A stretch of DNA of 64,000 nt from Mytilus trossulus (Eukaryota), in NCBI RefSeq assembly GCF_036588685.1, contig NC_086386.1, positions 77,996,001 to 78,060,000 of the forward strand, given 5' to 3'. The notes under the pieces are model-generated. The model was not told the DNA's origin. It saw only the letters and a program-made list of their open reading frames with translations, and did not search any database. The translations under genes and the position numbers were made by a program. Numbering within the stretch: the stretch's first letter is position 1; every line of letters begins with the position of its first letter. Shown here in pieces: positions 12,801 to 64,000 of the stretch.

Positions 12801-15800
12801 CCGGTGTCTGTTGCAGGTCAGCCGTTGCCAGGTCAACCAATGATGCCACCAGGATCAGTTCCAATCAGTGTCATGAATCAGCCAATTAATCCAGGTTAGT
12901 CTAATAAACTTAAGAAATATGTTTTTAAACTAGAAAAAACACAACCATATTACTAGGGGGGGGGGGAATAGTGACAGAGAGAACTCAAATCAGTGTTCTA
13001 TACAAGTCAACAACAACTTGCAGTAAGGTGCAATTTTTGGTAAATTTTGAAAATAATATGGAAACTCCAGAAACTTTTTTTTTTCTTAACCGAAATGCTT
13101 ACATTTTAAATATCAAACACTAGGACATGTCTTTCAGTTATGAGAATTTGGATATACTATTTGTTATGTATTTACTTATTGAAAAAGACTTTATTTAATA
13201 GATTCCTATTCACAATACCATGGATTCATTATTATTCTTGGGGGTTTTACCAGTTTAAACGTGAACAACAAATTTAATGTCAAAAGAAGTAACAATTATT
13301 TACTGTAAATTCAGAAATTATTGCATGCATTTATTATTGCGATTTTGTCATTTTAGACTTAAATTTGATTTTATTTTTTGCGATATACAGAAAAAACCTG
13401 TTTTATTCATATAAAAAAATTCAAAATGCGAGGCTTAATTATTGCAATTAAAAGATTAAAACCCTGTCGCTGTTTTTGCAATAATAAAAACATTGCAATA
13501 ATTTCTGAATTTACAGTATATATATTTTGCAAATTCTTGTAAAACCATGAAATCAAATACCCTTGAAAATAAATGAATCCTTTAAATTTGTAATTCAATT
13601 CTAGTGGTGATCGTAATCTTTTTGATTAATTCTGATTCACTATAAGCACTTGTATGTTTTAGGAATAATGAGTCAGCCACTTGGAGGACCACCAAATCTA
13701 ATGCCGTCCCAACAGCCACCAAGTAAGTTTAACATTTTAAATTCATTGTTTCAAATTTAATTTTGAATTGTTTCAAATTTACTTTTGAATAGGCAGTTTT
13801 TAGAAATCTGATGATCACAATAACTCAGTATATGATTGTTGCCAGGCCTTGAAGGCATAAAACTTTGCTCAGTGCTAGGAGCACAAAAATCATGCTCGAA
13901 ACATGAAATCCAGCAATTCGATTGGTTGATTTTCGATTCTGAGTACAAAAATTGTGCTCAAAAGTTTTATGGCCGTGAGGCCTGGTGTAGACCACATTTG
14001 AAAATATTATATGAAAACTGATTGCTTGTCCAAAAGTCTTGTCAGCCCGTGCTGGTAAAATTTCTATCAGGTCAATAGATTACTGTGGATACATTAATAT
14101 AAGTTGAATACCAATTTTCATGGATTTCATGAAACAAGGGAACCGCGAATTTAAATATTCAAGGAATTGCAAATTTTCTAAAGGAATGTAAACAAACTTT
14201 GCCAAAACCACAAAATTAAATATCTACAAATATGCAAGTTTTCTTCAATCCATGGAAATTGTTCACAAAAATAAAGAATCCACAGAATATACAGAATTAA
14301 AAGAAAATAGTACATGGGCTGTGGCTGCAAAAGTTCAACCAAAAACTGTATAGGACAATGTAAGAGGAAAACAGTTTAACTTGTGTGATGTCTTATTATT
14401 AATTAAGCAAGTTTATTTACAAGTAAGGCCATAAAAAAGAATATGTATGTTTGCCCTAACCCTACCTACCAAGAAAAAAGCTGCCTACTTAAAATCCAAA
14501 ATCTTTTATTGCCTTGATTTGATTTATTTTTAATCAGATTGGCATGACTAAAGACATCTGACACTTCAATTTCTCTTTGTAAAAAAAAAAGAAAGAATAT
14601 GCCTACCTATCTACTCACTGTCTCAACCTTTGGATAGGGTTTGGGCAAACCAAAATATTTTTAAGTATGGCCTTACCATTTTCTGAAAAGAAGCGCATCA
14701 TGAACAGGAAAAAAAATGACCATAAAATATGACACAGATAACTAAACTATCCCTACATATGTCTGTTTATATTTTAGCATTGCAACCTGAGCCATTGAAT
14801 GTCGAGTCTTTACTGCAAAGACTTATCAAAGTTGGTCTGATTGCACAATCTGGAGAAAAGGCAAAAGAACTAAACTATCCCTACATATGTTTGTTTATAT
14901 TTTAGCATTGCAACCTGAGCCATTGAATGTGGAGTCTTTACTACAAAGACTTATCAAAGTCGGTCTGATTGCACAATCTGGAGAAAAGGCAAAAGAAAAG
15001 GAACAAGAAAAAGAAAAGGAAAAGGAGGAAAAGAAATCAGAGAGTGAATCTCCACAAAAGAAAGAAGAAGAGTCGTCAGATGGGAAAGAGAAAAAGAAGC
15101 CAGTGGTAAGTGAATTTAAGAATGAAAAAATGTTGCATTATATGTAAAAATAAGAAGATGTGGTATAAATAAAAATAAGGTGTGGAAAAATAAGGTGTGG
15201 TATAAATAAAAATAAGGTGTGGTATAAATAAAAATAAGGTGTGGAAAAATAAGGTGTTGTATAAATAAAAATAAGGTGTGGTATAAATAAAAATAAGGTG
15301 TGGAAAAATAAGGTGTGGTATAAATAAAAATAAGGTGTGGTATAAATAAAAATAAGGTGTGGAAAAATAAGGTGTTGTATAAATAAAAATAAGGTGTGGA
15401 AAAATAAGGTGTTGTATAAATAAAAATAAGGTGTGGAAAAATAAGGTGTGATATAAATAAAAATAAGAAAATAATGATAAGTGGGCACAGTATTTATACA
15501 AAAAAAGGAGATGTAGTTTTATTGCCAATAAGACAAATTATGTTGAATTTAACAACTATGGGTCACTATATGGTCTTCAACACTGAGCAAAACCTATACC
15601 ACATAGAAAGCTATTAACAGCTACGAAAACACTTATATAAAAAAATTCAAATCAGAACAAATAGGGTTCAGTTTATAACTTATAAATAGTAAGCAATACC
15701 AGTTGTGGATTTTTTTTTATAAAGTACTAAATAATCTACTTTATAACTAAACATTTAATTTGCTCTATAGATTTACAGAGTGTTTATTCATTTATTGACG

Positions 15801-33118: not shown

Positions 33119-33491
33119 TAAAAGCGAATCATCATTTCACTATTTGATTTTCATTGATTATTGAAACAATAATCATATAAATATATATTTTTTTAATTTC
33201 TCGTAGCTAATGCCCCTTAAGAGCACACCTCAGCTGTGCATTATCTAGTTTATTGCACAATAACAAATACGAAATGGTGCCTTTGTCTGGTGTTAAGTAT
33301 GTTTGTTTATATTTTGTATTTTATTTACGCGAAAAAAACCTGGTCCAACTCTGATAGACACAATCCGATTAACCTCGATAAAAACATTTCCCGAGCTTAT
33401 CAATATACCTACCGTGATACATTTAAGTTGATTAATAAGGGGAGTTAAGTTTATTCAAAACAAGGAAGTTGTTTGTTAACCCGTGTTAGAT

Positions 33492-35513
33492 ATGGCAACG
33501 GCTGCAACAGGTGAACAAGAATTTGACATTTTCACTTGTCCTATATGTTTAGAGAAACTTAAATCTCCTAAAAGTTTACCGTGTTCTCACAGCTTTTGTG
33601 AAGTATGTATCGGTGAGTTTATTTTATCGACAGAACGTCGGACGGGACATAAACTTTCGAGTTACCCATGCCCCGTTTGTAGAGCAGATGTTACGTCCAC
33701 CAATCAAGAAGACGAAACATCACAGTGGGCATCGACTCTCCCGCAAAATTTATCATTTCCATCACAAATGGACCAATCAGAATCTAAGAAACAAGAGTGT
33801 CATCTATGCAAAACAGAAAATAATCAAAACGTAGCAGCACACTGGTGTCGGGATTGCAGTGATGCCTTTTGTGATGACTGCTTACGAATTCACAACCGTA
33901 TGAAATTTTCTGCAGATCACAAGATTGTGAAAATCGAAGAAATTAGTCAGTGTGCCAGCGTAGGCGAGTCTGATTTTAGTTTGATATCCGATTCATGTCC
34001 GATTCACAAATCTAAAATTTTGGAAGCGTTCTGTTTCGACCACCAGACACTGTGCTGCGTGCTCTGTCTAACATTGCAACATAGGAAATGTGAGAAGGTT
34101 CATGCAATTGATGAAATTCAAAATCTTGACAAAGATATTATATTATCTCAACTGAAATCAGAACTAATCGAAATGAAAAATAAAGTCAATGAATTCAAAA
34201 CAACAAGAGGTATTCACAAGAAAAAACTCGACGTTGTTTTCACCGAAATGGAATTGAACGCAAGAAAAAATATTGATTGTTTGAAAAAGAAGCTAAACAG
34301 TCTCCTGGCTGTGTTTGTAAAAGAACTGAACTTAAAACGCGAAGAGCAGAGAGTTTCTTCTGAAGAAAAGATGGATGCATTTGATAAACTTTTAAGTTAT
34401 ATTGAACAGTTACAAAACGCGTCAAAAACTGTCGAAGATCATTGCAATTTGAATCAAACATTTATTTTCTTCGAACGATCCAAAACTGATATCAAAGCTG
34501 TAGTAAAGGAATCAAGGGATGTAATAAATACAGAGTCAATTGATAATGCTGCATTTACTTTTTGCAAAATACTGGAACAAGCATCAAATGTTTCTTCTCT
34601 CGGCATAATAAAGTTTTCAAGATCTATCTCGATTGAAAGGAATACATTTGATAGACAGTTATACCCTTCTAAAAGTATTTTACTAGTTAAGAGTATGCCT
34701 CCACTTTGCTATGACAACATTTCGCTTAAACGGACTAAGTCGTTTAGTTTAAAAGCGTTTGCCATTTATGGGTGTGTTTTTGCTTCGGATACCATTGTTG
34801 TTTTGGGTGGAAGGGAGGCCTGTATGGGAGTGCAAAAAGGAAAAGTTAAGGTTCTCGACATAACAAACGGATCTATCACATCTGAATACAGTATTGAAGA
34901 AACAGTTAAAAGACTTTCGTACGATATTGAAAGTAAATCACTTTTTATTTCATGCTATGATTCTAAACTTCTCAGTGTGAAGTTTGCCAAAGACTTAAAC
35001 TCACCAGTAAATATTAAAACAATGGCACAAAATGTTGGTGCTACATGTGTTTTTGAAAAGAATCTGTACGTCGTCGCTGATAATGCCTTGCAAAAAGTAG
35101 GCATCGAAAAGGCAAAGGAAGAAGCCATTTTAAAAACATGTTTTAAAACTAATACCGACTGTAAATCTCTTAACGGACTGGACATCGACTGCAAGAACAA
35201 ACGTGTGCTATACACATCTTCAGCTTATGAGGTGGTATGTGCATCATTAGAGGGGGAGCAAATCTTTTCGTATAAAGAAAAAGATATGAAAATTTATTGC
35301 GTAGCTGTCTTTTCAAACGGAGAAATATTAATAGGTGATAAGAGTGGATCGGTTCACGTTTTATCAAAAGACGGTAAACAAAAAAGAACAGTTGTCAATA
35401 AATGCCATAAAGTAGTACCCATTTGTGATATCTGTTTAGACAAATCGAACACGCGTTCGATTATTTGTGGACCTGATTTCATAGAAATATATGATATCTT
35501 TTCTTTTAAATAA
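33492..35513 (+). CDS. TRIM-family E3 ubiquitin ligase (RING - B-box1 - B-box2 - coiled coil - NHL/beta-propeller-like), intronless CDS, 673 aa
   Basis: First ATG at 33492. C3HC4 RING CPIC...CSHSFCEVC...CPVC; B-box1 CHLC...WCRDC...FCDDC..H..H; B-box2 CPIH...FCFDH...CCVLC...H; heptad-rich middle; beta-rich C-terminus. Confidence 0.92.
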   Translation: MATAATGEQEFDIFTCPICLEKLKSPKSLPCSHSFCEVCIGEFILSTERRTGHKLSSYPCPVCRADVTSTNQEDETSQWASTLPQNLSFPSQMDQSESKKQECHLCKTENNQNVAAHWCRDCSDAFCDDCLRIHNRMKFSADHKIVKIEEISQCASVGESDFSLISDSCPIHKSKILEAFCFDHQTLCCVLCLTLQHRKCEKVHAIDEIQNLDKDIILSQLKSELIEMKNKVNEFKTTRGIHKKKLDVVFTEMELNARKNIDCLKKKLNSLLAVFVKELNLKREEQRVSSEEKMDAFDKLLSYIEQLQNASKTVEDHCNLNQTFIFFERSKTDIKAVVKESRDVINTESIDNAAFTFCKILEQASNVSSLGIIKFSRSISIERNTFDRQLYPSKSILLVKSMPPLCYDNISLKRTKSFSLKAFAIYGCVFASDTIVVLGGREACMGVQKGKVKVLDITNGSITSEYSIEETVKRLSYDIESKSLFISCYDSKLLSVKFAKDLNSPVNIKTMAQNVGATCVFEKNLYVVADNALQKVGIEKAKEEAILKTCFKTNTDCKSLNGLDIDCKNKRVLYTSSAYEVVCASLEGEQIFSYKEKDMKIYCVAVFSNGEILIGDKSGSVHVLSKDGKQKRTVVNKCHKVVPICDICLDKSNTRSIICGPDFIEIYDIFSFK

Positions 35514-35868: not shown

Positions 35869-38685
35869 TATACAATACTATACAATACAATACAATACAA
35901 TACAATACAATACAAATAGTTTATTTACGTCTCACCATTATAATCCACGAATACATACAAAAATATAAAATATTAATGCCATTCTAAAATTAGTTATGAG
36001 AGACAGGATTAAAATATATATATTAAAAAATTATTAAAAATAAATATCACTGTACACCTAGACGTCTTCTATCTTAAATAAATTTGCAGATTTTGGCACT
36101 ATAAATAATAATACTATCACAGTTACTGGCTAGAACAATAGACAATTTATTCAGGTTGGAAAAATTAAATAGTTTGAGTGTTCTGACAAAATATTTTAAA
36201 AAGTTCATTTCGCAGATGATCCTTCAACGGATACTCTAACAAGACACGTTCCTCAGTTTCAACAATGTTTTTACAAGTTTCGCAAGTCCGTTGTTGCACG
36301 GGTAGCCTCTCACATCGTCCAGTCTCTAGGCGGATCGGTGCAACACCACATCGAAACTGCGCGTATACTCTTCTAGGCGATGGAACTATAACTTTGTGCA
36401 TGTATTCCTCTGTGTGTAATGACGTTTTAAAAGTTCTATATTTCCTCAACTTATTTCCACCGTTACCATTCCTTTGAGATACAGTTTTATTGAGTTAGTT
36501 GGACCATTCATCGTACAATTGAGATAAAAGTCTGTCATACAGTACATTCTCAACCAAGGCTTAATCCACATTTTTGGTGTTATACAGGATCATCATGTCT
36601 GCTGATAAAAATTGTTGACGTATTCTATAGTTCCAGTTTTTACATTTACGTCCGTTCAAGCTACAAACTTCTGACCACTCAAAAATTTTGTAGTTAAATC
36701 TATTACGGTCCATTTTTTTTCGCCTACACCACTGGTTACTGACACTGTTCCATTGTTTTATAATAGCTGACCAGTATCCATCCCGAGTCACCTATTATCG
36801 CCGTATGCTCCATAGCTGATAGTGCTCCAAACTGTTGAATCGTATAGTTTAGAAAATGTTCGAAACGGAAAACCTCCAAACTATTTATGTTTCGAAATTA
36901 AAAGTCATAAAGCTCTGTTTGCGGCAGCTGCAACATGTTAAGCCATGATCTGGTAGTCCAAATGTTCTGTTAATACGAGTCCAAGATATGTATACTTATC
37001 GACTGTTTTAAAAGTTATATTTCTACATTTAAAAGTTGCTGCAGATCTTGGTAAAGAATTCGGAGACATTTGGCTTGTTTCCATTCACTGTCATATTATT
37101 GTTGACCTACCATATATCATTGAATCAAATAACGTTTGCAGTTCGTTTTCAGCATTGGCAAATAACACTAGGTCGTCAGCATATAATAACATCGAAACTT
37201 TTTCACCTCCAATATCAACTCCTAAATTATGTTAAGATGTTAATTAAATGTGTCGCAAGGTCATTAATGTAAAAATTGAAGAGTTAATGGCGATCATAAA
37301 CAGCCCTGGTTAGGCCGCAACTCACATTAAACCAGTCTGTTTTGCAACCATTTATCCTCACACAGCATTCCACACTTTTATACAAGGACTGAATAGCGCT
37401 ATATATATTCCCTTGAATACAAATACTAAGTTTCCGAAATAAAATGGTACGATCAATACAATCATATGCTTTGTGGAAGTCTATATATGCAACAAATGTT
37501 GATAATCGATTACACTTTCTTGTTTCTATAATTGATGTGAGCGAGGTAACATGATCAATAGTGCTCCGTCCTTTCCGGAAACCGTTCTGAACATAACATA
37601 AAATGTTATTCTCGGATTCCAATGCATTCAGTCTATTATTTAACACATGAAAATAAAGCTTATAACATACAAGAACCAACGTAATCCCTCTTTAATTCAT
37701 CGGATCCCGCGCATTTCCTGTAGACGATTTTGGAATAGGGTGTATAATTCCTTTAGCCCAAATCTCTGAAATTATTCCCGTGAAAAACATTTGTTAAAAA
37801 GTTTATGCAAGAACAGTATCACGCTGACATTTTTAAAAAGATCAGCTGGTATTTCATCCACATCGACTGCTTTGTTTATTTTCAAGCTACGGACTGCTCG
37901 CTGCACTTCATCGATACTTATTTCATCATTTAGTTCATGTAATCCTCTACATTCGATATCAGGCTCATGAATACGTTGCGAGTCTATTAATGTTTCCGGT
38001 GCATTACTGTCATCGTTTGCATTTGATAAACCATAAAACGCATTTTTCCATTCTGATAGAACACTGTCTTTATCATTCGTGATTTCTCCATTCTGTAATT
38101 GTACTTCCATTGGGATAAGTTTACGTCGTTCTTGTCCAACGCCGATTCGTTCAATTTCTTTCCAGATTTCGCGTTGCTTACCACCTTCAAGTTCATCAAT
38201 TCTCAATACTTTATTTCTCTTACGTTGTGCTTCACTGTCAAAATTTTTCCTTTTCAAAATGAACACTTTTCTAAACTCGCGTTTTCTCGACGTAATCTTA
38301 CATTTAATTATGTCTTTTTCCGCTTCACAGACTTTGTTCCAAAGCACAGTAAGTTGATCGGACCTCCAAGGTTTCTTTGTGCGCCTCTTTTTACTACTTA
38401 GTCCATCATATAGTTTAACAGTTTTGTAGTCTAGGCAATCGTTCATTTCGTTTTTTAGTATATCTACAAAATTTCCATACAATTTATTGATGCTTCTGAT
38501 TCACCGTGTTCATATACAACTGTAGAATTAAATCTTCAATATCTCGTAACCGATTATCCAAAAAAGAGCTTAGGATGTTAGAAAAATCGAACTTTTTCAC
38601 TTCTGTTTCTTTACTTTTGTTTTCATCATGAGACTTTGTCAATTTGTCAAACACATATTCTCCGCTAGAAGAGAATGGTCGGGAT

Positions 38686-50638: not shown

Positions 50639-51820
50639 CTATTGCAATCGTTTTTGATTTAAAAGGCGTGCTGTTTCAACGTTTCCATATTTTTTCGCAA
50701 TTTTCAAAGGCGTAAAGCCCTGATTGTCACATAATGTAACATCAGCATGCATTTCTAATAAAATATGTACAATATCTGTATAACTTTCATCGTATAAAAT
50801 TAATTCAAGAGGGTCATGTTGACTATTGTTTCCTCTACACGCTATATGCAATGGTGACTGCCCATAACTATCACATTGATCAATATCAACGTTTTTCTGT
50901 AATAATAATTTCACTATTTCCTCATGGCCACCCTTGCAAGCAGTATGCAAAGGTGACATTCCAAATTTGTCACATCCTAAAACGTCAGCACAGTGTTGTA
51001 GTAAAAGTTGTACAATGTATGTATATCCCATTTCACAAGCCACATACAACGGTGACCGTTTATACTTATTGCGGATTAAAACATCGGCATTATTGTTCAA
51101 TAACACGTTCACTACATCAATATGTCCTTTAGAACATGCAAAATAAATTGGAGTCTGTTTAGTCCGACCTTGCTGGTTTATGTTTGCTCCTTTATCAAGT
51201 AAAAGCTCAACTATATCAATATGCCCGCCTTCGCAAGCAACATGTAAGGGTGTCTGGCCATGTACATCACATATAGAAATTGAGTTAATTGTCTTCAGCA
51301 ACAACTTTGCGATGTCTAGATACCCTTTACCACATGCAACAAAAAAGGGAGATTGATTTCGTTGGTCACACTGATTTACATTTGCACCCTTTTCAAGTAA
51401 AAGATGTACTGTATCGTTGTTTCCTGTTTGACAAGCCATGTATAATGGCGACTTCCCAAATTTATCGCTCTGAAAAATGTCAGCCTTATTTTCTAGCAAC
51501 TCTTTTACTATGCATGGGTGTCCTCCTTTACAAGCCGCATACAATGGCGTCTTCCCATATTTTGCACTCTGTGTGACATCTGCATTGTGTTTAAGGAGTA
51601 TTGTTACCACGTCTATGTTTCCCCCTTCACAAGCTTCATACAAAGGTGACTGCCCAGCCCAACCACTTTGGGAAACATTGGCCTTGTATTCAATTAAAAG
51701 TTTTACAACTGCTGAATAACCCCCTTTACATGCAAAGTGTAATGCTGCACGTCCATCTTTTCTTTTTTTATTTACATTAACATTCTTTTTAAGTAGCAAT
51801 TCCACTATATTTTGATGACC
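50639..51820 (-). CDS. Ankyrin repeat array (last exon, after the frameshift)
   Basis: ORF 50639-51805, 11 ankyrin repeats; the frame continues upstream as GHQNIVELLL. Confidence 0.85.
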   Translation of the reverse strand, partial: GHQNIVELLLKKNVNVNKKRKDGRAALHFACKGGYSAVVKLLIEYKANVSQSGWAGQSPLYEACEGGNIDVVTILLKHNADVTQSAKYGKTPLYAACKGGHPCIVKELLENKADIFQSDKFGKSPLYMACQTGNNDTVHLLLEKGANVNQCDQRNQSPFFVACGKGYLDIAKLLLKTINSISICDVHGQTPLHVACEGGHIDIVELLLDKGANINQQGRTKQTPIYFACSKGHIDVVNVLLNNNADVLIRNKYKRSPLYVACEMGYTYIVQLLLQHCADVLGCDKFGMSPLHTACKGGHEEIVKLLLQKNVDIDQCDSYGQSPLHIACRGNNSQHDPLELILYDESYTDIVHILLEMHADVTLCDNQGFTPLKIAKKYGNVETARLLNQKRLQ

Positions 51821-54800
51821 TTTTTTTTACATGCAGACATCAACGGTGACTGTCCACGATCGTTAGATTTTAAGGGATCAGCATTCCTATCCAGCAATAG
51901 TTTAACAATATTTGTATGGCCTTCTTTACAAGCCAAAAACAATGTAGAGCGTCCTTGATCGTCAACCTTTGATAAATTTAGATAGTTTCCTATTTTTTCT
52001 CTTGCTGCATAAGCTGTAACACGGTTAGATCGTTTCTTTTTCTTTTTTTTAAAGAATCCAAAACTTTTTTGAAGCAAAAGTTCCACCACTCCTATGTGCC
52101 CCTTTGAACAGGACACCTGTAAAAGAGACCAACCATGTTCACCATAACCATAAAATTTAGCACCGTTTTCAAGTAAAAGTTTTACTACAGCAGTGTGCCC
52201 TCCTTCACAGGCCGCAAATAAAGGTGTTGCCCAACACCAATTACTGAAATTGACATCGCATTCTACATATTTTAAATCAATCAGAACCTTCACTATGTCA
52301 GCAAAACCTTGAGCTGCGGCTTCCATAATTGGTACTGAATACATAGAAGATGAATGTTGTTTCATTGCTAGCCTTACATCAGGATCATGCTGGAAAGCTT
52401 TTATAATTTCTGCTCGAATCGTGTCAATTACTAAATTCTTATTACTTAATGTGCTTACGATGTGACCATGCTTCATATCTCGAATCAGTCTATTCAAATA
52501 CTCTCCCTCCATGTTTTCCGACAACATTATTATTTTGTTATTTTCTTTTCTTTCAAATGATTGAAATCTGTAGTGATCGCGAACAAATGATGTTGGCGCA
52601 TATTTGATGAAGCATTCTTTAAGATATTGCCCATACAGGAAGGCTGCAATTTCATTTATTTTATCATGTATCATTATATACATATTTCCAAACTTTTTTA
52701 AGTATGTCAACTCTAAAGATTCAAAACAACACTGTAAACATTCCCTTTCCCTTTCTAAATTAATATTTATGCCACATTCGTCCACTACATTCTTTATCTT
52801 GTCTCTTTCTAAGATAGGTGCGTATTCCAATTTTAGCCAATCTGGATTGAAACCATTCAAAAATAAGATGCACAAAACTAAAGCACATAGCTGATAATTA
52901 TTCTGCCACGTTATAAATTGTGTTAAATCATCTTTGATAGTGTCAACAGGTGACAAAAATAGTTTCTTTATTTCATCAGAATTTTTCCTAACTGCCAATT
53001 TACACAGCAAGGGAAAGAAATCGAACGTTTCCCGACCCCAGGAGTAGCACATTTTGCCTGGAATGTATCGTTTCACCATTCTCATTTTTTCTGCATTTGA
53101 CAAGCGAAGCTCTGTTGACAGCAAATTGCATTGGCTTCGTTTAAAAAGTGTCAACTTTAACAATTTAACGTGAACATCTCTGTATAAGTGTAATCTACAG
53201 GATACCAATAATTTTGGAGATGACATTTGTGTGCACGATAGATTGTTTTTACCTTCTTCGTTAACTTCGAAAATTTTTGCTAATTTTCCCGAATGATCTC
53301 TCCACAGCTCCACTAAACTCACATTTATTGCTTCTTTGCCACAAATATCATCAACAACAAAAACTTGTTTCGTTGTTGGGTCTCGAAAGTTGATAATATC
53401 TTGCGGTCCTGTTACAAACGGTATAACTTCGTATCCATACTTAAAACATAATTCTAACGCAATATGATGAATGATTGACGACTTGCCAGTTCCCGAGCTA
53501 CCAGTGACAACAACAACGTTTTTTCTTTTATATTTCAGAAACGACTTCACGTACTTTGTAGCCTTGGTGACGACAAACATGTGGTCGTCCTTTTTCCATT
53601 CATCTAAATATTGTTGATGTTGAGCTATTAAAAATGACATAGATTATCTATAATATTATAAAGTGTATTACATTGAAATTTCATGAACTAGTTTGATAAC
53701 CTTAGTATTATATTTGAAAGAATATTGAAGTGGGATTGACTTTCATAGTAAAATTACCAAAATGCTTAAACTTATACATTTGTTTAATGGATTAACATCT
53801 AAGGGTGTTTTACGGGTGTTCGTTATTGGTTAAGGCCGTAATGTGACCTGACCTTATCATTTAATCTTAGATGGATATTTGTCTCATAACCCATTATACA
53901 TTAATTCAATGTTTTGATATCAAATGTAAAACATGAAAGTCAGTAAGGTAAATTCTGTATATCATCGTGCTTTTTATAAAGAGCAAATTCAGACCATCAC
54001 CGACACATCTTTTAATCCAGCTATAAATCTAAAACATCATAATGAGCGAAACATATAAATTGATTTATGTACATTTGTAAAGGCCATATAAATGCATTCA
54101 AATGGAAAATTACACAATTACAATTTCCGAATGAAACTTAGTCTAATGAAACCAAACTTTTACCACATGAACAAGAGTGTGTAATCATTAAGCTTCATAA
54201 CCTGTGTTCACCCAAATAATTTGATGGGATTCCTCTTGTTCAGTTTTTCGTTTTAAAGAATGCTTTGTGGATCAGTTTTTGCCTTTTTATTTTTCGTATT
54301 TAGCAATTTCGTGTCAGTTTACCATAAATAAAGGCAACAGTAGTATACCGCTGTTCAAAACTCGTAAATCTATGGACAAAAAACTAAATCGGGGTAACAA
54401 ACTTAAACTGAGGGAAACGCATTAAATATAGAGAGGAGAACAACGACACAACATTAAAATATAACACACACAGAAACGGACTAAGCATTAGACAAAATCA
54501 GATGAGAATAATAAATATAACATCAAAACCAAATACATGAATTTGGGATAGAAAAGAACCGTGATACGTCTTATAGTAATGTGAATTCACACTCAAATCT
54601 GGAGAAAACAAAAGACACAAGGGAAATACAACGTTAAAATGTTACACACACAGAAACGAACATGATATAACAATGGCCATTTTCCTGACTTGGTACAGGT
54701 CATTTTTAAAGAAGAAAATGGTGGGTTGAACCTGATTTTGTGGCATGCCAAACCTCGCACTTTAATGGCAATGTTAAGTATAACATTAAAATGACAACAA

Positions 54801-57800
54801 CTTAATATTACAGGACTACAATACAAATAAATAGGAGAACGTATTAGACAAAGAAACACATGAATAATAGATAACAAAAGACCTCAGGTTTAAAATTCAA
54901 TACGTCCACACAAGACTTACCAGTGACTCCCAGATATAAAAGTTCGAGTGTCAAAAAAAGTACAAAGTTGTACAGCACTGAGGATCAAAAATTGAAAAAG
55001 GTTGTGCCAAATACGGCTAGGGTTTTCTGCTTGGGACAAGAACATCCTTATTATTTAGAACAATTTATGCTATTGCAAACAGTAAATTTTATCAAATGAA
55101 TATAAAAGATATACATGATAAAACTGAAGTTTTAACTAATTACAGAAAACAAAACCTGGATACATGATACAAAGACCAACACAGAAAATAGACACACCCT
55201 ATTTAGTCCAGGCCTTAACGCAAAAAGTCATAAAAATGACGTCACATACGAAGTGGTGAAAAGACTCAAAAATTACATCACATTTGAATTTCTAAAACAG
55301 CACAAAAATGACGACATATATGAAAAACTATATCTCAAAAATAAGATAGAATTATGATTGATTTAAGATTGTAAGTGAACTAAATACTAATATTACATTT
55401 AAATACAATGCACATTGCAATACTTATTAATAGCAATTAACTATATCATATATATGTCCGATTTGTTTTGAATTTAACTTCAAACGTAAAACATCGTATA
55501 GATTACGTTCAACAAAAGCAAATCTAATAAATAAAGGCGGTGATTAATTTTCTTTACCATAACACATGAATATAATAGAAAAGACGTCAACAAATTTGAC
55601 AAAATCTGATGAGAATTACAAATATAACATCAAACTAAATACATGAATTTTGAATAGATAAGGACACCTCTTATAGAAATGCAAATTCACACTCAGCAAA
55701 ACAGTCACAATCGGGAATAAGTCACGTTCGGTAATTAAAAGATTAGACGACGTAATGACAAACCACAATCTACCATGTGGTAAAAATGTCCTTAGCTAGT
55801 TTGGTCAAAGACACATCGTATGGATCAACTAATTCGTGATGGTGTCCATAAAATTTACGGAGTGTCAATTTTAATCTGTCCTCCTCATAACTTTGTTGGA
55901 GCAGTTTCTTTGTAAGGAGCACACTCCTGTATATGAAGTCCGTATAGTGGAACAAGCACAAGAATAACGTTTCAATTGTGAGATGTAAACACCATACGAA
56001 GGGGCAGAGGGTATGTTACTGCTGCGAAATGGGAAATTGATAATTTGGAAGGTGAAATCGTCCCGTTTATCATAGATGTTCGTGTGAAGTGGTCTATCTG
56101 CGTCAATATTGAGGAAAAGATCAAGGTATGAAGCAGTCCGTCTAGTATCAGTAGTATCCTTAATTTCAAGTTCGCTACGATATATGAGATGTAAGTATTG
56201 GCTGAAACATGGGTTATTCAATGATAGAACATCATCAATATATCGGAAAGTAAAATTAAAGAATTTCGTAAGGTGCTTTTTCTTTTTGTCTTTTAGAAGG
56301 TTTGAATGAATTCTGCTTCATACGAGTACAAAAACAAATCGGCCAGCAGGGGTGCACAATTAGTACCCATTAGAATACCGACTATCTGTTGAAATATAAA
56401 TCCTCCAAAATCAACTAATATCCTGTCGATCAAAAAGTCCAGCATTTTGATAATATCATCTTCAGTATATTTTCTGGAAGATTCAGTGTGATTCTTCACA
56501 AAATATGAATTATTGTAACCCAAAACAAGAAATTTGTATCTAAGATTCCCATTTTTTATAGAAAAAGCTCTTTTTTATGAGATGGTGAAGTCGATCTTTC
56601 AACTGAGCATGGGGAATAGCAGTGTATAGCGTAGAAAAATCAAAAGTCTTTATGTTGCTGCAAAATTGCAAACATTGTGATCGAAGATTAAGCAGTAGAT
56701 CTTTCTAATTTTTGAGAATCCACATCTGGTGGTTAACACCACTGGTAGAATATATCTCATCACAATATTTTTGAAACCCATCTTTAACTGTAGAAGAATA
56801 CTTGTCAGTACTTGAGAAATATGTTTAATCGAACATTTTGTATGTATCGTTCTTTATATGGAGTTTTGTGTAATTTAGGTATCCAGTATAATGAAGGTAA
56901 ATTGTCTTGGGTTTCTTTGATGTTGATACCAAAAGAAAGAAGGACAGATTTATGATTTTGTAAAATTTCGTCCTTGGTAAATGATGTTAAAGAATATGTA
57001 GGGTTACCAGTAGTTTTATTTATTCCAAGCTCTGTTGTGAAACATTGCAAAATATGTTTTTTACATATGAAGACAATATTATTGGAGGCTTTATCTGCTG
57101 GAACAACGACATATTTGTAATGCAAAGAGGATAAAGCATCCACAACATCCGGATTCTTGAAAGGGTTAGTAACTCTTGTACTTATATTACATCGTAAGTT
57201 TTTAATATCACTTTGGTATTTTCCTCTATACAATCGTTTTGTCTATAATACACTCTATTTAAAGTCATCCTTATGTTTGTGTATCGACAAAAAGATCATG
57301 ATACAAAGTCATCCTTGTGTTTCTTTATCAGGGGAAAGATTATGATACGAACCATCCTGTGTTTCTTTATCGGGGAATCGTTCAAGATACGAAAAAAGTA
57401 AAATCACAAAAATACTGAACTTAGAGGAAAATCAATTCGGAAAGTCGATAATCACATGGCAAAATCAAATAACAAAACGTATCAAAAACGAATGGACAAG
57501 AATTGCCATATTCCTGACTTGGTACATGCATTTTGTAGAAAATGGTGGATTAAACCTGGTTCTATAGCGCTAACCCTCTCACTTTAATGACAGTCTCATC
57601 AAATTTCGTTATATTTACATTGTTGCGTTAAATAAACAGACACAATAAATAAAATAGTCAAAACATGGGTACATCAGTCATCATCGTATAACAATTTTAA
57701 AAGGAACAATTTAACAGAACACAAAATCATCTACTATCTAAGAAACACATTCATTGATTTGAGTGTCTGACGTCAGAAAGTTTTATACGTCACATAAATT

Positions 57801-60608
57801 TGTCGTTCAATGTGCATACAAACAATATTTTAATTTACGTATGCAATTTTAGCAAACGAGATTAAAAAATATAAATATTATACCCCTTATATTCTTTGGA
57901 ATAGTATCGTCTTCATACTTCTTTATTTCTAAGGCCAAATCTTCTATCTGCGTGGTAACTTTTTTGGTTATCAACTTCATGTCTTTACCTGGAATAGAAT
58001 CGTTTTAAAAGCATTTTCGACAAACATTTCATGTAAATAAAAGGTCCACAAAATATTATAAACCTGACAAACTTATTGCTAAACTACAATTAAAGTCATT
58101 TTTTTGGTGAAACGAGTTACTGGTGAAAAAAAATGGTTATCCAATTCTTAAAACAATGCATGTATATATCATAAACTTAGCTTTCTTGGCACGATTTTAT
58201 CATTTTGTGCGCAAATATATCGTATAACCGTCAATTATTTTATTCTCAATGTCTGTTATGATTTAACAAATATGGCAGCTCATTAAATGCAGTGTTTTGT
58301 CTCCGAGGTTTACCGATTGTCACCTTATAGTAAACATTCAACAAAAAACATGGAGATTGAGCACGTGTTTTACATGTACAATCAGATAATAGTTAATTTC
58401 AGTGACAGATCCATGCGTATTGCGAACACCGGATTTTTTTACGAGCAGGTTCACTCTAAATTTACTTTGCATAAGGAAAATATGTCGGTGAATTGCTTCC
58501 TGGTAGCAAGCAATTAGAAAACGTTAACTTCTTCTTCTAAATGTGGACAAATTAAAGAATTTTCTGTAGAAAAAAGTATATTTATATAAGTTTAATAATG
58601 AAAATTATCCATTTTGTTATAAAAAAACATATGCATAATTTTTTTTTTTAATTTTAGGTTTCATATGATTTGTTTTTACATTTCTATTCTTTTACAATAT
58701 AGAATAACATTACTTTCATTCACTCTTTTCTTAATTTAAATTCTGTGCAGTCGTTAGTTGTACTATAACACTAGATTGCAATGTACAATTAACTTAATTA
58801 ATAGTTTTAATAGAAATAAACAAGTGGCAAAAGAGAGTACTAGAAACAATCTTAAAGTACCTTCAATTGCCCTAAATGAAAAATGAAAAAGTATTATAAA
58901 CGTATATCGGGAAATAAATGTCTTTAGGTATGACAAGTGAGCCTTGTATTTTCAATCGAAGAGCAATTACTGAGTATTTGCAATATATTGTATTAATTGC
59001 CATAAATTTTCATAAAATGCTTGTTTCATGCGATATTGCATCCAAGCTGATACATTCTTCAACATCCAATTTTAAATAAATATGAGTGTAATCAAGGAAA
59101 CATTTTTGAAATATTTCTTTCTAGGAAAAACGTTCCGTACTTCACGTAAAACCTGAAGTCTTTTGGGGGATATAGATGAGCCTCAGCTTAATATGCTTAA
59201 ACAATAAGTTTCAATATCAGAAATGAGTTCAAATAATTTATATTATTAACTGATTTACCCACAACTAGTTGACATTTTAGTTGTAAAGTCGCAAAACATA
59301 TGTACGCTTTTCATTTGCGACAAGTTAATGGATAATGATTATAAAGGGATGGTTAATCGAAATGAGATGCACCAATTTTAATGCCAGTGCATACAAAAAC
59401 GATTGACTCGTGATTAGTCGTTTTCCTAAAACCGGACTTACATAAGAGGAAAATGTCACATTGTCTTATTTCTATCAAGAAATGATGTAGATGTATTTAT
59501 ACATAATTAATAATTTTGTTTAAGATTATAAAAATTACTGCTGCCATATAAATAACTGACATTTTAAAATATTTTCTGTCAAAGACAAAATATTTCAAAC
59601 GTAATATCTTCGACAAAAATTACGGATTGATATCAAAGACAAATTAGATTTCATTTGAGCACAATCTAAGACAACTTATTACCTTGTGCACTGCATTTAC
59701 TGTGAAGTAGAGTTATGGAAGTTTGAGTTATAGCTGTTTGTGATTTCAATGTCCCTATTTGATTAGAAATTTCGCCACGAAGTTCACACAGATCTTGCCG
59801 AATATAAGTTAAAATGTCTCTGTTGAGATTTATCTGACTCAAATCCTCAAATTTTGGTTTGTATTTCACTCCACCAATCCTGATGATTGCCTAATAAAAT
59901 AGAGAAACACATCAAGTTAGGATAAGTTTGGCTGAGAAAGTTTGCATCTTAGTAAATACACATTCTCTATATTTAGTAAAGGGAAACTTAAGAAAGGTAT
60001 TTTATAAATCATGCAAGCACCACCAACACTGGCAACTAAGCAGATATATATTTATTTTGGATTTATCATTTTGACTGTTTTATATTTTTTAGTTTTCTTT
60101 TACTTTTAAATTGATTGGGGGTTTATTTAAATGACCTTTCTGAAAGGAGAGGACAAAATGTCATTTGACTAAACTATACAATACAATACAACACAACACT
60201 ATAATATGCTTTATTTAAAAACAATCCGTCATATTAACATGTGCAACTAGAGTTGAATACATACAGATACAATCATATACAATCATAGAAACAAAAAAAC
60301 AAACTTTGAAACGGAATATATTAATAATTACTATACTTTAAATAATATACACGATGTAAATCTGTTCTAACATTTTACCTTAGTTATACAAATCCACATC
60401 GTGTTGAAGTCTTCATTGGATAATTCGTCTGTTTCAGTATGGGCCATAAAATTTCTATAGTATTTAATTCTAGCCAAATCTGCTCCATCGCTGGTTTCTG
60501 TAACTGGTGGTAGTTTGTCATAGCCAAGGCATGGTTGCAAGATATTTGTCATGTTCCTCAATAAGCATATCATTAGTGTAATATCGTAATTTTCTGATGA
60601 TGTTATGC
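50639..60608 (-). CDS. HEPN (DZIP3/hRUL138-like) - coiled coil - STAND NTPase (nSTAND3-like) - ankyrin repeat protein; 5' exon(s) not found; one frameshift at A8 run 51821-51828
   Basis: Exons on -: 60608-60379 (SSENYDITLMICLLRN...DLARIKYYRNFMAH), 59890-59683, 57988-57884 (...DTIPKNIR), 53624-50639. GT-AG with compatible phases. Walker A GSSGTGKS, Walker B VFVVDDICG, about 16 ankyrin repeats (xPLxxACxxGHxxxVxLLL). Confidence 0.85.
51805..53624 (-). CDS. STAND NTPase + first ankyrin repeats (last exon, before the frameshift)
   Basis: ORF 51805-53640; the acceptor aatag lies at 53625-53629. Confidence 0.85.
54326..57830 (-). mobile_element. Decayed Penelope-like retroelement (RT at ~57233-55770) in the intron of the HEPN-STAND-ANK gene
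   Basis: PLE-type RT motifs VVVPADKASNN, YWIPKLHKTP, FDFSTLYT, GILMGTNCAPLLADLFL, FRYIDDVL, YDKRDDF, YGVYISQLKRY, with frameshifts. Direct repeat 55598-55695 matches ~54490-54595 (pLTR-like). The left boundary is supported by other copies; the right boundary is approximate. Confidence 0.85.
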
Positions 60609-60999
60609 CTACAATGGAGAATAGAATTATAAAGACTTAAGAGATCACATTTAAAATTAAATAAATACGTTAACAGGAGCTTTTTAAGACGCATCTCTAA
60701 CGTGCAGTAAGCCACTCAGAAACTTATGACGATCACTTATCACATGACCCACTTTGTAAAATATCTCTTTGATTCATACAAAAAAAATATCTCTAAATCT
60801 CACAGTATCAAGATGCTTGATTACTTTATTGACAACATATTTATACGTTTAAAGGACGTGTTTTAGTCAAACAATCGGCAATATCATGGGAACCAATTGT
60901 GCATCCCTTCGTCTGACATGTTTCTTTATTCATCTGAAGATGATTTCATACAGGAAAATGTTAGCAGTATACTTTCCGCTCTCTATATATACACATCCA

Positions 61000-61527
61000 C
61001 ATCGGGACAGCTGCAGTACAGGCGATTTGGTATCACTTTATGTCAGTAGCATGTGTTCGAATCCCGTTTGGTTGATATTTAGACGAGTTGTATATACATA
61101 ATGTACACAGCCATGTTTCACCATCACTGCTGGTGATCCAATGGCTAAATCTGTTGTAGAGTTGTCACTGACTCAGACGTCCTTATAAATATAATTATTT
61201 TCTGTGACTGTATCTTACATTAATTTGTAGGATCCTTTACTATAGATAATGTAGCTGATCTGTAAGAATAACATCTTCACGCCTTATATATCATGTACTG
61301 TAGTATGACGCTAGATTAAAACTGACGTGGAAAGGTAACATCCGGCCACCGATTTTTTTATGAAGCCCAGGTGGTCGTGTTGTCTAGCAGGACGGCTACA
61401 GTGCAGGCGATTTGGTGTTACGATATCTCAGTAGCATGGTTCGAATCCCGGGGTGGGGGGAGGGAAAAAATAATGCGAAATCAAATTTACAGATCTAACA
61501 TTGTTGGGTTGATGTCTAGACGAGCTG
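61000..61527 (+). mobile_element. tRNA-related (Pol III A/B box) repeat, ~1.3 permuted units, flanked by direct repeat tatatacacatcca
   Basis: A-box-like tggtcgtgttgtcta and B-box ggttcgaatcc at 61365-61450; partial second head at 61004-61065; direct repeats at 60986-60999 and 61528-61541. Confidence 0.6.
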
Positions 61528-61902
61528 TATATACACATCCATATATACGAGTCTAAATTGAAAACTACGTTCAAATCTATGATTGCGTTGGATAAAAACC
61601 GCAATTTTTATACATGTGCATGTAAAACAAATTTCGTTGTAGAAGGGTCTAAAAACAGCACAAACAACATTTTTCAAAAGACCAGTGAAATAGTATATTT
61701 CAACAAAACTCATTTGACTAACAGGTCGAAAAACTGATGTTCTTTAACCCTGCTGCCTGCCATTGGCGATTGCTAAATAAAATTGATCACATTATGTAAC
61801 AAAATGGATCTTAATATAAATTTAATACTAAACAGAATTTTTTTTTTTAACTTGTGGCCAAATGTTATGCCACAAACACACGGTGTCAATATATTTTTTG
61901 TA

Positions 61903-61943
61903 CACCAGATCCGGATTTTGCAATAAATGTCTCTTCAGTGATG
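61903..61943 (-). ncRNA. Type I hammerhead ribozyme, mutated copy
   Basis: CAUCA CUGAAGA GACA UUUAU UG-C AAAA UCCGG AUC UGGUG: GAAA changed to AAAA and a 1-nt deletion in helix II; helix I fully paired. Confidence 0.65.
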
Positions 61944-62462
61944 TTAGGGATCGAAACGACATTTGGAAGGTCATATAAAAAATTCCCTCATTTTTAGAAA
62001 AAGTACCCTCATTTTTAGATAGACTTAAGCGTCAATATAGGATGAACGGATCATATAAACCGGAGGGAAAAAATGATACAAGCCCAAACGAAAAAATATA
62101 AACCAGTCTAAATTGAAAACTACGTTCAAACCTATGATTGCGTTGGATAAAAACTGCAATTTTTATACGTGTGCATGTAAAACAAATTTCGTTGTAGAAG
62201 GGTCTAAAAACAGCACAAACAACATTTTCCAAAAGACCAAAAAAGTGAAAAAGTATATTTAAACAAAACGCATTTGACTAACAGGTCGAACAACTGATGT
62301 TCTTTAACCCTGCTGCCTGCCATTGGCGATTGCTAAATAAAATTGATCACAAGATGTAAAAAAATGGATCTTAATATAAATTAACTACTAAACAGAATTT
62401 TTTTTTTAACTTGTGGCCACGATGTTATGCCACAAACACACGGTGTCAATATATTTTTAGTA

Positions 62463-62504
62463 CACTAGATCCGGATTTCGACAATAAATGTCTCTTCAGT
62501 GATG
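62463..62504 (-). ncRNA. Type I hammerhead ribozyme (intact catalytic core)
   Basis: CAUCA CUGAAGA GACA-UUUAU-UGUC GAAA UCCGG AUC^UAGUG: CUGANGA and GAAA core, 4-bp helix II, minimal palindromic helix III, helix I with one mismatch. Confidence 0.8.
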
Positions 62505-64000
62505 TTAGGGATTGAAACGGCATTTGAAAGGTCATATAAAAAGTACCCTCATTTTTAGAAAAAGTACCCTCATTTTTAGATAGACTTAAGAGTCAATATA
62601 GGATGAACGGATCATATAAACCGGAGAGAAAATATGATACAAGCCCAAACGGAAAAATATAAATGAGTCTAAATTGAAAACCACGTTCAAACCTATGATT
62701 GCGTTGGATAAAAACCGCAATTTTTTTACGTGTGCATGTCAAACAAATTTCGTTGTAGAAGGGTCTAAAAACAGCACAAACAACATTTTCCAAAAGACCA
62801 AAAAAGTGAAAAAGTATATTCAAACGCACATCCATATATATATATAGAGATGATGTTTTGTCACTAAATGATGTGATGACTCTGTTAAATGCATTTATGT
62901 GACCTATCGAATTAGACCAATTCTGGGTTTGTATTTATATGAACAACACGAATGGAGTTACATGTGGAGAAGGATCTGATTACCTTTCCGGAGGAGCACC
63001 TTCGATCACCTCCAGTTTTTGTGTGGTTCGTGTTGCTCAGTCTTTAGTTTTCTTTATTATATGTTGTGTACTTCTGTTGATTTATTGGTTTTATTCTTTT
63101 TAGCCATTATATGTTTTGTTTTATTTTCGACTGATGAGATTGAAATTCCCTCTGGTGCTATTCGTCTCTCATTAAGAGGGTAGTGCAAAGTTTGTGATTG
63201 TGGTCAAATGTAGCTCGAACTATAATATATTTTGCCAAATTAGATACCTAGATCATACAGTTGATAAAAGCCAGTGAGGAAAAGATGAAAACAAAATTCT
63301 ACGTTGCTAAAACTGGTTTCTTTATTAATCTCATTTAAAGACAGAGCTTGTGATTCCATGTTACTAGATACATACGCAGGATAATGAGGTCATCAACTTA
63401 ATGTAACAAAAAATGCAAATCATGTGTTAAATCTTCAAATAAGGAATGAATGGTTGCAAAACAGTCATTTAGAACAAAACTCAATCTCTAGTAGGTCTCT
63501 AATAAGACGACGGTATGTCATTAACGTATTAATAAGACATATCCGAAATAAACACCGGGTTTCGGAAAAGGCATTATGTGTGATATTTTTCAAAGTATCT
63601 GTCACGTCTCATCACAATAACATACATTTTATTAATGATTTTCATAATAGAAAAAGTCAACCACTTATGATGATTACCCTATTACCTTGATAAAAACCAA
63701 AGTTAATTACAAATAAGTTTATATTGATTACGATGTTATCTCAACCGTTTTAAACTTCAGTAAAATACGTGACTGATGTTTGTCATTAAACAACATTTTC
63801 CCATTCTTTATAAATTGTTGCTTCTGTTGCATAAAGTCAAGTCAAACGTATTAATACATGGTAAACACGGCCACTTTGTAGTGAATATATTATCACATTG
63901 CACTGTTATTTCATTACCGTTTGTTAGTATTGTGCCCTTTGGTTATAAAGATAAACGTCATGCGTGTTCGTCTTAACTGTGTTATATCTGTAGTAATGTG

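Follow-up and report, generated by a model that had tools for sequence, protein, structure and literature searches.

A gene on the minus strand of a 64,000-nucleotide stretch of the Mytilus trossulus genome (assembly GCF_036588685.1, contig NC_086386.1, positions 77,996,001 to 78,060,000; here called the window) places an nSTAND3 NTPase and an array of ankyrin repeats after a HEPN domain, all behind a predicted N-terminal membrane anchor. On balance we favor the reading that it encodes an NLR-type immune receptor carrying an RNase that would be activated by oligomerization; the copy in this assembly is frameshifted. A preliminary description of the window had placed a gene with a HEPN RNase-like effector, a STAND NTPase, and about 16 ankyrin repeats between positions 50639 and 60608. 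That gene is real and was recognized correctly in outline; it is broken in the assembly and longer than first reported.

Exons, domains, and the break in the ankyrin array

The four exons that had been joined across 10 kb all have AG/GT ends and splice in frame at every junction (Table 1; last exon, 53624-50639). The junctions coincide with those of a public predicted gene model, P0043 (846 aa; source label Mytilus trossulus LOC134696615), which is identical to the window gene across the region searched. That part of the claim stood; the continuous frame did not, being broken inside the last exon. The motifs DITLMICLLRN, RNFMAH, GSSGTGKS, and VFVVDDICG are all present in the spliced exons. Profile searches against Pfam bore out the proposed domain identities (HEPN_DZIP3, nSTAND3, and Ank), and the domain order is that of the suggested effector-STAND-repeat layout.

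The gene had been thought to start at 60608. The exon beginning there matched HEPN_DZIP3 with an expect value (E) of 2e-22 over profile positions 38 to 114 of 144 only, and two more coding exons lie past the end of the window. Using tblastn with relatives, we found the first half of the HEPN domain at L011:163-419. The complete domain then spans profile positions 1 to 139 of 144 and matched PF18738 with an E of 1e-33 and 116 bits, against a cut-off of 27, which places it in the DZIP3/hRUL138-like HEPN family. It carries the R-(N/D/H)-x3-5-H motif of HEPN RNases as RNFMAH. Among 30 related proteins picked by HEPN tag, the N and H of this motif were invariant (30/30), the R was present in 22, and a K replaced it in 8 (KNFxxSH); among genomic loci, RN-x3-H was found in 37 of 40 and the K form in the other 3. 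The expectation that paralogues keep RxxxxH thus held for the R-bearing majority and failed for the K-bearing remainder. We also looked across 150 distant HEPN representatives and parsed RN..H in 116 of them, with 27 unparsed and 7 of another form. Together with the count at the genomic loci, this is the pattern expected of a catalytic site.

A structural model of the HEPN domain had a predicted local distance difference test score (pLDDT) of 89.8. Its top three structural matches were Csm6, AbiF, and Csm6 (Z, 7.1, 6.2, and 6.0), structures that we take to carry HEPN domains. A homodimer prediction scored 0.08 against a mark of 0.32, a result that counts neither for nor against dimerization. 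The K-for-R subclade includes L033, L034, and L057 (a cluster on contig C13), P0010, P0015, and others; it reads KNFLVSH, with a longer spacer and the H retained, and its NTPases are among the nearest to that of the window gene.

The NTPase matched PF20720 with an E of 5e-19 and 69 bits (gathering threshold, 27.2) over profile positions 1 to 153 of 155, and thus belongs to the nSTAND3 clade. It has a Walker A and a Walker B motif, a sensor-1 R, a helical domain, and a winged helix with an HD-type motif. In the same 30 HEPN-tagged proteins, Walker A was conserved in 29, the Walker B DD in 25, the sensor R in 30, and the winged-helix HD in 27. GxP is the usual STAND motif at a position where this family has FPL, conserved family-wide. 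When a model of the STAND module (pLDDT, 91.6) was compared with 48161 chains, the top three matches were STAND proteins, namely, NRC2 (Z, 14.0; root mean square deviation, 4.0 over 259 aligned residues), 8bob (Z, 13.8), and 6mfv (Z, 13.0). Below them came general AAA+ proteins; Z was 11.4 for NLRP9 and NLRP3, 10.8 for SAMD9, and 10.2 to 10.3 for Avs5. The top rows of a Foldseek search with the same model were NLRP3 and EfAvs5. Sequence searches of the PDB gave three rows of no use for the STAND module (E, 0.7 to 1.8); when the whole model was the query, the 60 matches shown, out of 415, were all to ankyrins. Pfam searched at an E of 0.1 gave no NACHT, NB-ARC, or LRR match. The nearest Atlas clusters were from molluscs, followed by bacterial nSTAND3 proteins (feature score, 0.94; template modeling score, 0.76 over 383 residues), a nearness that we regard as a lead on origin and not as a demonstrated transfer.

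The linker between HEPN and NTPase showed weak heptad periodicity, which was reached by 110 of 5000 shuffles for residues 159 to 232; when the halves were taken separately, 533 and 237 of 5000 shuffles did so. The estimate of about 16 ankyrin repeats agreed with our count of 16, comprising 14 found by pattern in the orthologue and two degenerate terminal repeats recognized by eye; four are whole before the break. A polybasic, aromatic-flanked insert, FGFFKKKKKKRSNR, lies between repeats 3 and 4 at about 52062-52021 on the minus strand. It is retained in the Mytilus californianus and Mytilus coruscus orthologues and partly in P0001, and not in P0045 or P0047. This insert could bind lipids or nucleic acids, or it could act as a bait loop for proteases.

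The last exon consists of two open reading frames (ORFs) of 612 and 395 aa, stop to stop, that meet at a run of eight A residues. Because this run shifts the frame, the spliced frame ends after 786 codons and the product has only four whole repeats. P0043 terminates at the same premature stop. P0042, the orthologue from M. californianus, and P0044, a model from M. coruscus, both read SACKKGHQNIV through the break, and identity to P0042 is 89.9% ahead of the break and 90.0% behind it. Since both halves are equally near P0042 and 393 codons follow without a stop, we consider the break to be either a very recent null allele or an assembly error. One possible source sequencing run contained a fraction of 1.00 of 324 sampled last-exon words, about 3 of which are estimated to span the A8 run, and other runs contained at most 0.75, which weakly suggests that the A8 form is in the reads. 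Two runs registered as RNA contained 0.27 and 0.23 of the last-exon words and were not counted as evidence of expression. A search for short allelic proteins spanning the frameshift gave 213 matches; of the 120 that were listed, none was near-identical, and the best reached 46%. As the break sits in the last exon, a truncated four-repeat product could be made.

Upstream exons and a predicted membrane anchor

The newly found HEPN exon is open from its phase-0 acceptor and has no ATG ahead of the first conserved helix (ENEDNFLRM). The closest paralogue in the genome among scored candidates, on contig C6 (63% identity), is divided into exons in the same way. The long isoform of this paralogue, P0162, begins with a hydrophobic helix on a phase-0 exon of its own, 1.2 kb upstream. 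We scanned for exons with an ATG, a hydrophobic stretch, and a strong phase-0 donor. In 104 kb, both strands included, there was one candidate, L011:2235-2128, 1.7 kb upstream of the HEPN exon; in the 40-kb C6 region, the scan returned the annotated exon only. The helix of the candidate has a Kyte-Doolittle hydrophobicity of 2.38. The N terminus of M. californianus P0302, the top match in a search of 1.84 billion representative proteins, scored 64 against this exon, the next best of 3297 six-frame segments scored 38, and none of 20000 shuffles reached the score. The anchor is annotated in both P0162 and P0302. A tblastn search with the P0162 anchor did not have the exon among the matches listed.

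As a control, we took the 10 kb upstream of 40 hand-chosen loci from 69 paired paralogous loci, leaving out this gene and the C6 paralogue. The first HEPN exon could be located in 34 of them, and in 33 of these 34 the locus supplied an ATG itself, about 15 codons or less ahead of the EEENY helix. This gene and P0162 have no such ATG. The exon scan, run for any phase, had a background of one sense and two antisense matches in 218 kb per strand. A hydrophobic stretch preceded the HEPN domain in 6 of 150 HEPN representatives, in diverse contexts, and the 10 kb ahead of each of three more related exons contained no anchor-like exon (best scores, 33 to 39).

From these sequence comparisons we strongly infer that the exon belongs to the gene and that the predicted anchor lies N-out/C-in, leaving the other domains facing the cytosol. 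The orientation follows from an acidic residue before the hydrophobic stretch and basic residues after it, since by the positive-inside rule the basic flank stays on the cytosolic side. With a membrane anchor as the most likely start of the protein, the earlier wording "cytosolic sensor" is better replaced by "membrane-tethered, cytosol-facing." Because 33 of the 34 control paralogues start at their own ATG near HEPN and scan matches were few, the putative anchor marks a small branch, with three genes seen in this analysis.

Two further sequences deserve mention. L061 (G000:C14:16972501-16972716) is a HEPN first exon whose identity to P0302 is 72%. The 10 kb after it contain neither a second HEPN exon nor a STAND match, and the 10 kb before it contain nothing like the anchor exon; L061 may be an orphaned remnant from the anchored branch. 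In P0305, two HEPN domains of the DZIP3 type accompany a transmembrane-like helix and an N-terminal region rich in cysteine, giving the protein the look of a receptor with a double HEPN.

Family and relation to known systems

The architecture had been described as an expanded family in bivalves, and this one mussel genome indeed has at least 150 HEPN-exon and at least 150 STAND-exon matches (the best 150 of 325 HEPN candidates and the best 150 of 424 STAND candidates were scored). Of the 150 HEPN exons, 69 were followed on their own strand by a STAND exon no more than 30 kb away (median distance, 7.7 kb), 8 were preceded by one, and none had one on the opposite strand. Family members are often found in tandem clusters. 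The STAND frame was as short as that of the window gene, or shorter, in 23 of 150 cases and at least 800 aa long in 99. The HEPN-nSTAND3-ankyrin architecture is already present in automatic annotations. The same STAND-ankyrin chassis carries a CARD effector in P0035, and an M. edulis model, P0014, has a nucleoside diphosphate kinase domain fused to nSTAND3-ankyrin, a fusion that may be a gene-model merge. For a paralogue type found in M. edulis and M. coruscus (P0059 and P0001), none of the 113 G000 candidates scored, out of 513, matched better than this gene did (61%), which suggests that the P0059-type paralogue shows presence/absence variation.

HEPN-NACHT receptors of bivalves and other invertebrates have been proposed as immune receptors (PMC9646362, PMC8662601). 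The pearl oyster has more than 50 HEPN-NACHT proteins, with Rx4-6H in 194 of 202, and other molluscs are reported to have few NACHT genes, 5 to 20 (PMC9646362). HEPN-NLRs are known from nine invertebrate taxa, with tests called for (PMC8662601), and one has been noted in Aplysia (PMC9334734). These proteins share with the window gene an N-terminal DZIP3/hRUL138-like HEPN with Rx4H, a central STAND module, C-terminal repeats, lineage-specific expansion, and haplotype copy-number variation, and their function is likewise an inferred one (PMC9646362, PMC8662601, PMC9334734). In contrast to them, the window gene has an nSTAND3 NTPase instead of NACHT, ankyrin repeats, and a predicted N-terminal anchor; the word "ankyrin" does not occur in PMC9646362. 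The nSTAND3 engine, the ankyrin sensor, and a probable signal anchor set the gene apart from the known HEPN-bearing NLR-like receptors. The DZIP3/hRUL138 HEPN family, of which the gene is a member by Pfam, was defined as including proteins fused to ankyrin or NACHT and as expanded in oyster, and the anchor-HEPN-nSTAND3-ankyrin combination is not among the fusions given in the accessible text (PMC3710099). The same source reports H and R to be essential in KEN/PrrC. Our literature search, which covered neither the supplementary tables (PMC9646362 S18-S19; 10.64898/2026.01.04.697583), where the architecture may be listed, nor most subscription papers, found no study of a mollusc HEPN-nSTAND3-ankyrin protein and no mention of this anchor.

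Avs5 has been placed in nSTAND3 (10.1101/2025.07.08.663546), and bacterial nSTAND3 proteins share with the window gene the Pfam NTPase family and the tripartite order (10.1101/2025.07.08.663546, PMC11897194). Avs5 itself has Sir2 and TPR-like repeats where the window gene has HEPN and ankyrin, so that the NTPase family is all they have in common. We did not adopt the term Avs5 homologue, as no PADLOC Avs model matched and Avs5 scored below NRC2 and 8bob. The best PADLOC match of the NTPase was PDC-S73 (E, 3e-9). A canonical NACHT-LRR animal NLR was also set aside on the domain searches above.

The comparison with RNase L made in the preliminary description extends to IRE1, which is membrane-tethered. 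All three have a HEPN-superfamily RNase motif, RNase L also has an ankyrin array, and activation by induced proximity is a proposed common logic. The window gene differs in its HEPN family, its STAND switch, its lack of any kinase or pseudokinase, and its reversed domain order, HEPN being N-terminal, unlike the ankyrin-pseudokinase-KEN order of RNase L. The likeness to both is an analogy and not whole-protein homology. Among plant NLRs, L6 and M are TIR, NB-ARC, LRR proteins. On a STAND receptor, they carry the kind of hydrophobic N-terminal signal anchor that is predicted for the window gene (PMC3801107). Receptor-like proteins described from oyster combine DED-TRADD-N and a transmembrane helix with tails that vary among STAND, HEPN, and ankyrin; these differ from the window gene in having an extracellular domain (PMC8195603).

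In STAND biology, an autoinhibited nucleotide-bound monomer gives way to a ligand-driven oligomer, and HEPN RNases form a composite site from two domains. By analogy, the window gene would sense a pathogen, oligomerize, and act as an RNase. Its ankyrin array would hold the NTPase closed, as the nucleotide-bound autoinhibited monomer, until a ligand at the array opened it and an oligomer formed. The oligomer would pair HEPN domains via the linker into a composite RNase site, RNA would be cut on the cytosolic face close to the anchoring membrane, and cleavage of viral or own RNA could bring about translation arrest or cell death.

Several results weigh against this picture. The window copy is itself frameshifted, and the M. 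edulis P0060 and M. coruscus P0044 models are truncated or gapped. The HEPN fold scores are middling (Z below 8, under the safe level of the tool), and Foldseek with the HEPN model found nothing at an E of 0.001. The K-for-R subclade (8/30 proteins; 3/40 loci) lacks the catalytic R and has one extra spacer residue, and our literature search found no report of RNase activity for any DZIP3-type HEPN. As to the anchor, its exon compared with P0162 alone was not significant (1507 of 5000 protein shuffles), a DNA score of 80 against P0162 was among the top three of 1972 windows and not clearly the best, and P0043 is without the exon. This last point, with P0043 starting at MFRLM, would fit a soluble form of the same receptor, which is translated from MFRLM and for which the anchor exon serves rarely or never as an alternative first exon. 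Two isoforms of the C6 paralogue are recorded, one long (P0162) and one short (P0002), and L061 supplies an ATG of its own ahead of the motif, with nothing like an anchor exon in the 10 kb upstream. However, MFRLM sits within the first conserved HEPN helix and a start there loses the EDNF motif, and the anchor exon has an open frame in the right phase and is a homologue of the P0302 segment; we consider the soluble form unlikely. Similarly unlikely, in our judgment, is an NLR-like receptor whose HEPN binds RNA or serves as a scaffold without cutting and whose output is signaling or recruitment. The K-for-R subclade, the CARD that replaces HEPN on the same chassis, and the lack of an activity report from the literature search would suit such a protein, and PMC8662601 leaves sensor versus RNase undecided, but RN-x3-H is intact here and in 37 of 40 paralogues, and RN..H in 116 of 150 representatives.

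The frameshift, the word content of the possible source run (1.00 of 324), and the likewise broken P0060 would agree with a decaying member of a birth-and-death family that has no current function in this species. We think this improbable, since the lesion is single, the two halves are equally conserved with 393 codons free of stops, all motifs and splice sites are intact, and orthologues exist in four Mytilus species; decay would, moreover, concern the allele and not the design of the gene. A nonimmune role, as a membrane-tethered RNA-processing or stress-signaling enzyme resembling IRE1, has very little likelihood for us. The anchor with HEPN does recall the IRE1 KEN domain (KEN is listed as HEPN in PMC3710099), and STAND clades have nonimmune members (10.64898/2026.01.04.697583, section 4), but the at least 150 divergent, often tandem paralogues, the swapping of effectors, the presence/absence differences, and the lack of a lumenal sensor domain all argue against it.

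Our preferred reading thus remains an anchored immune receptor with an oligomerization-activated RNase. If its HEPN cuts RNA on activation, an animal receptor would be its own executioner, as in bacterial Avs systems. With such a HEPN, the family would also offer a simple test bed for DZIP3-type HEPN activity. Screens based on NACHT would miss the nSTAND3-ankyrin family, for which no fewer than 150 NTPase exons were scored in this single genome. The anchored branch raises a question of localization that hinges on one exon. It is the family and the anchor that give the gene its value, rather than this broken copy. More tentatively, and with less than even confidence, we suggest that mussels may have a large third class of animal NLR-like receptors, built from a HEPN RNase, an ankyrin sensor, and an nSTAND3 engine of the kind found elsewhere mainly in bacterial defense proteins, in which a small branch, with this gene among its members, is membrane-tethered for local, ligand-triggered RNA cleavage at membrane-bound ribosomes or viral replication membranes, blending the logic of Avs, RNase L, and IRE1 in one animal protein.

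Feature coordinates and neighboring elements

Table 1. Features of the HEPN-nSTAND3-ankyrin gene, in window positions; those beyond 64000 continue the numbering past the window end
Feature	Position	Strand	Basis or remark
Anchor exon, ATG plus 36 codons, predicted N-terminal signal-anchor helix	L011:2128-2235 (66128-66235)	-	Phase-0 GTGAGT donor; not in P0043
HEPN first-half exon and juxtamembrane linker	L011:163-419 (64163-64419)	-	Phase-0 acceptor, phase-1 donor; tblastn with relatives; 3' part in P0043
Intron leading out of the window	60609..64000	-	Two further coding exons beyond
HEPN core exon, DITLMICLLRN and RNFMAH	60379..60608	-	RNFMAH at 60456-60439; Pfam, splicing, weak fold match
Exon with last HEPN helix and start of probable coiled-coil linker	59683..59890	-	Splicing, relatives
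Linker-end exon, 105 nt	57884..57988	-	Same exon in contig C6 paralogue
Decayed dispersed repeat in last intron, not part of the protein	54926..57242	-	ORF pieces with YIDD-like and PKLHK motifs; 2.3 kb at 87% to L058
Last exon start, STAND module: Walker B DD, sensor-1 R, FPL, winged helix with IHD, further helical domain	52366..53624	-	Pfam, fold model
nSTAND3 nucleotide-binding domain	about 53577-53062	-	Walker A at 53502-53479
Ankyrin repeats 1 to 4 and beginning of repeat 5	51829..52340	-	Pfam, repeat pattern
A8 homopolymer, frameshift point	51821..51828	-	Premature TAG at 51807-51805
Remaining ankyrin array, 393 codons without a stop, closing with TAG	50639..51820	-	Out of frame in assembly

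The motifs in the ORF pieces of the last intron are, we presume, reverse-transcriptase-like; Pfam gave no match to these pieces. At 37284-38500, on the minus strand, are broken pieces of a reverse transcriptase of the long interspersed nuclear element type (RVT_1; E, 9e-10). Three near-tandem copies of a repeat of about 540 bases occupy 61500-62950, in the intron between two HEPN exons. On the plus strand, 7257-15147 holds a proline- and charge-rich gene with large exons and a glycine-proline repeat-like segment; its 1081-aa frame had no Pfam match, and the gene has the look of the 3'-end processing factor PCF11. Also on the plus strand, a single 677-aa frame at 33480-35513 encodes a RING domain, a B-box, and a C-terminal propeller-like part and is a TRIM-type gene, of a family tied to bivalve immunity.

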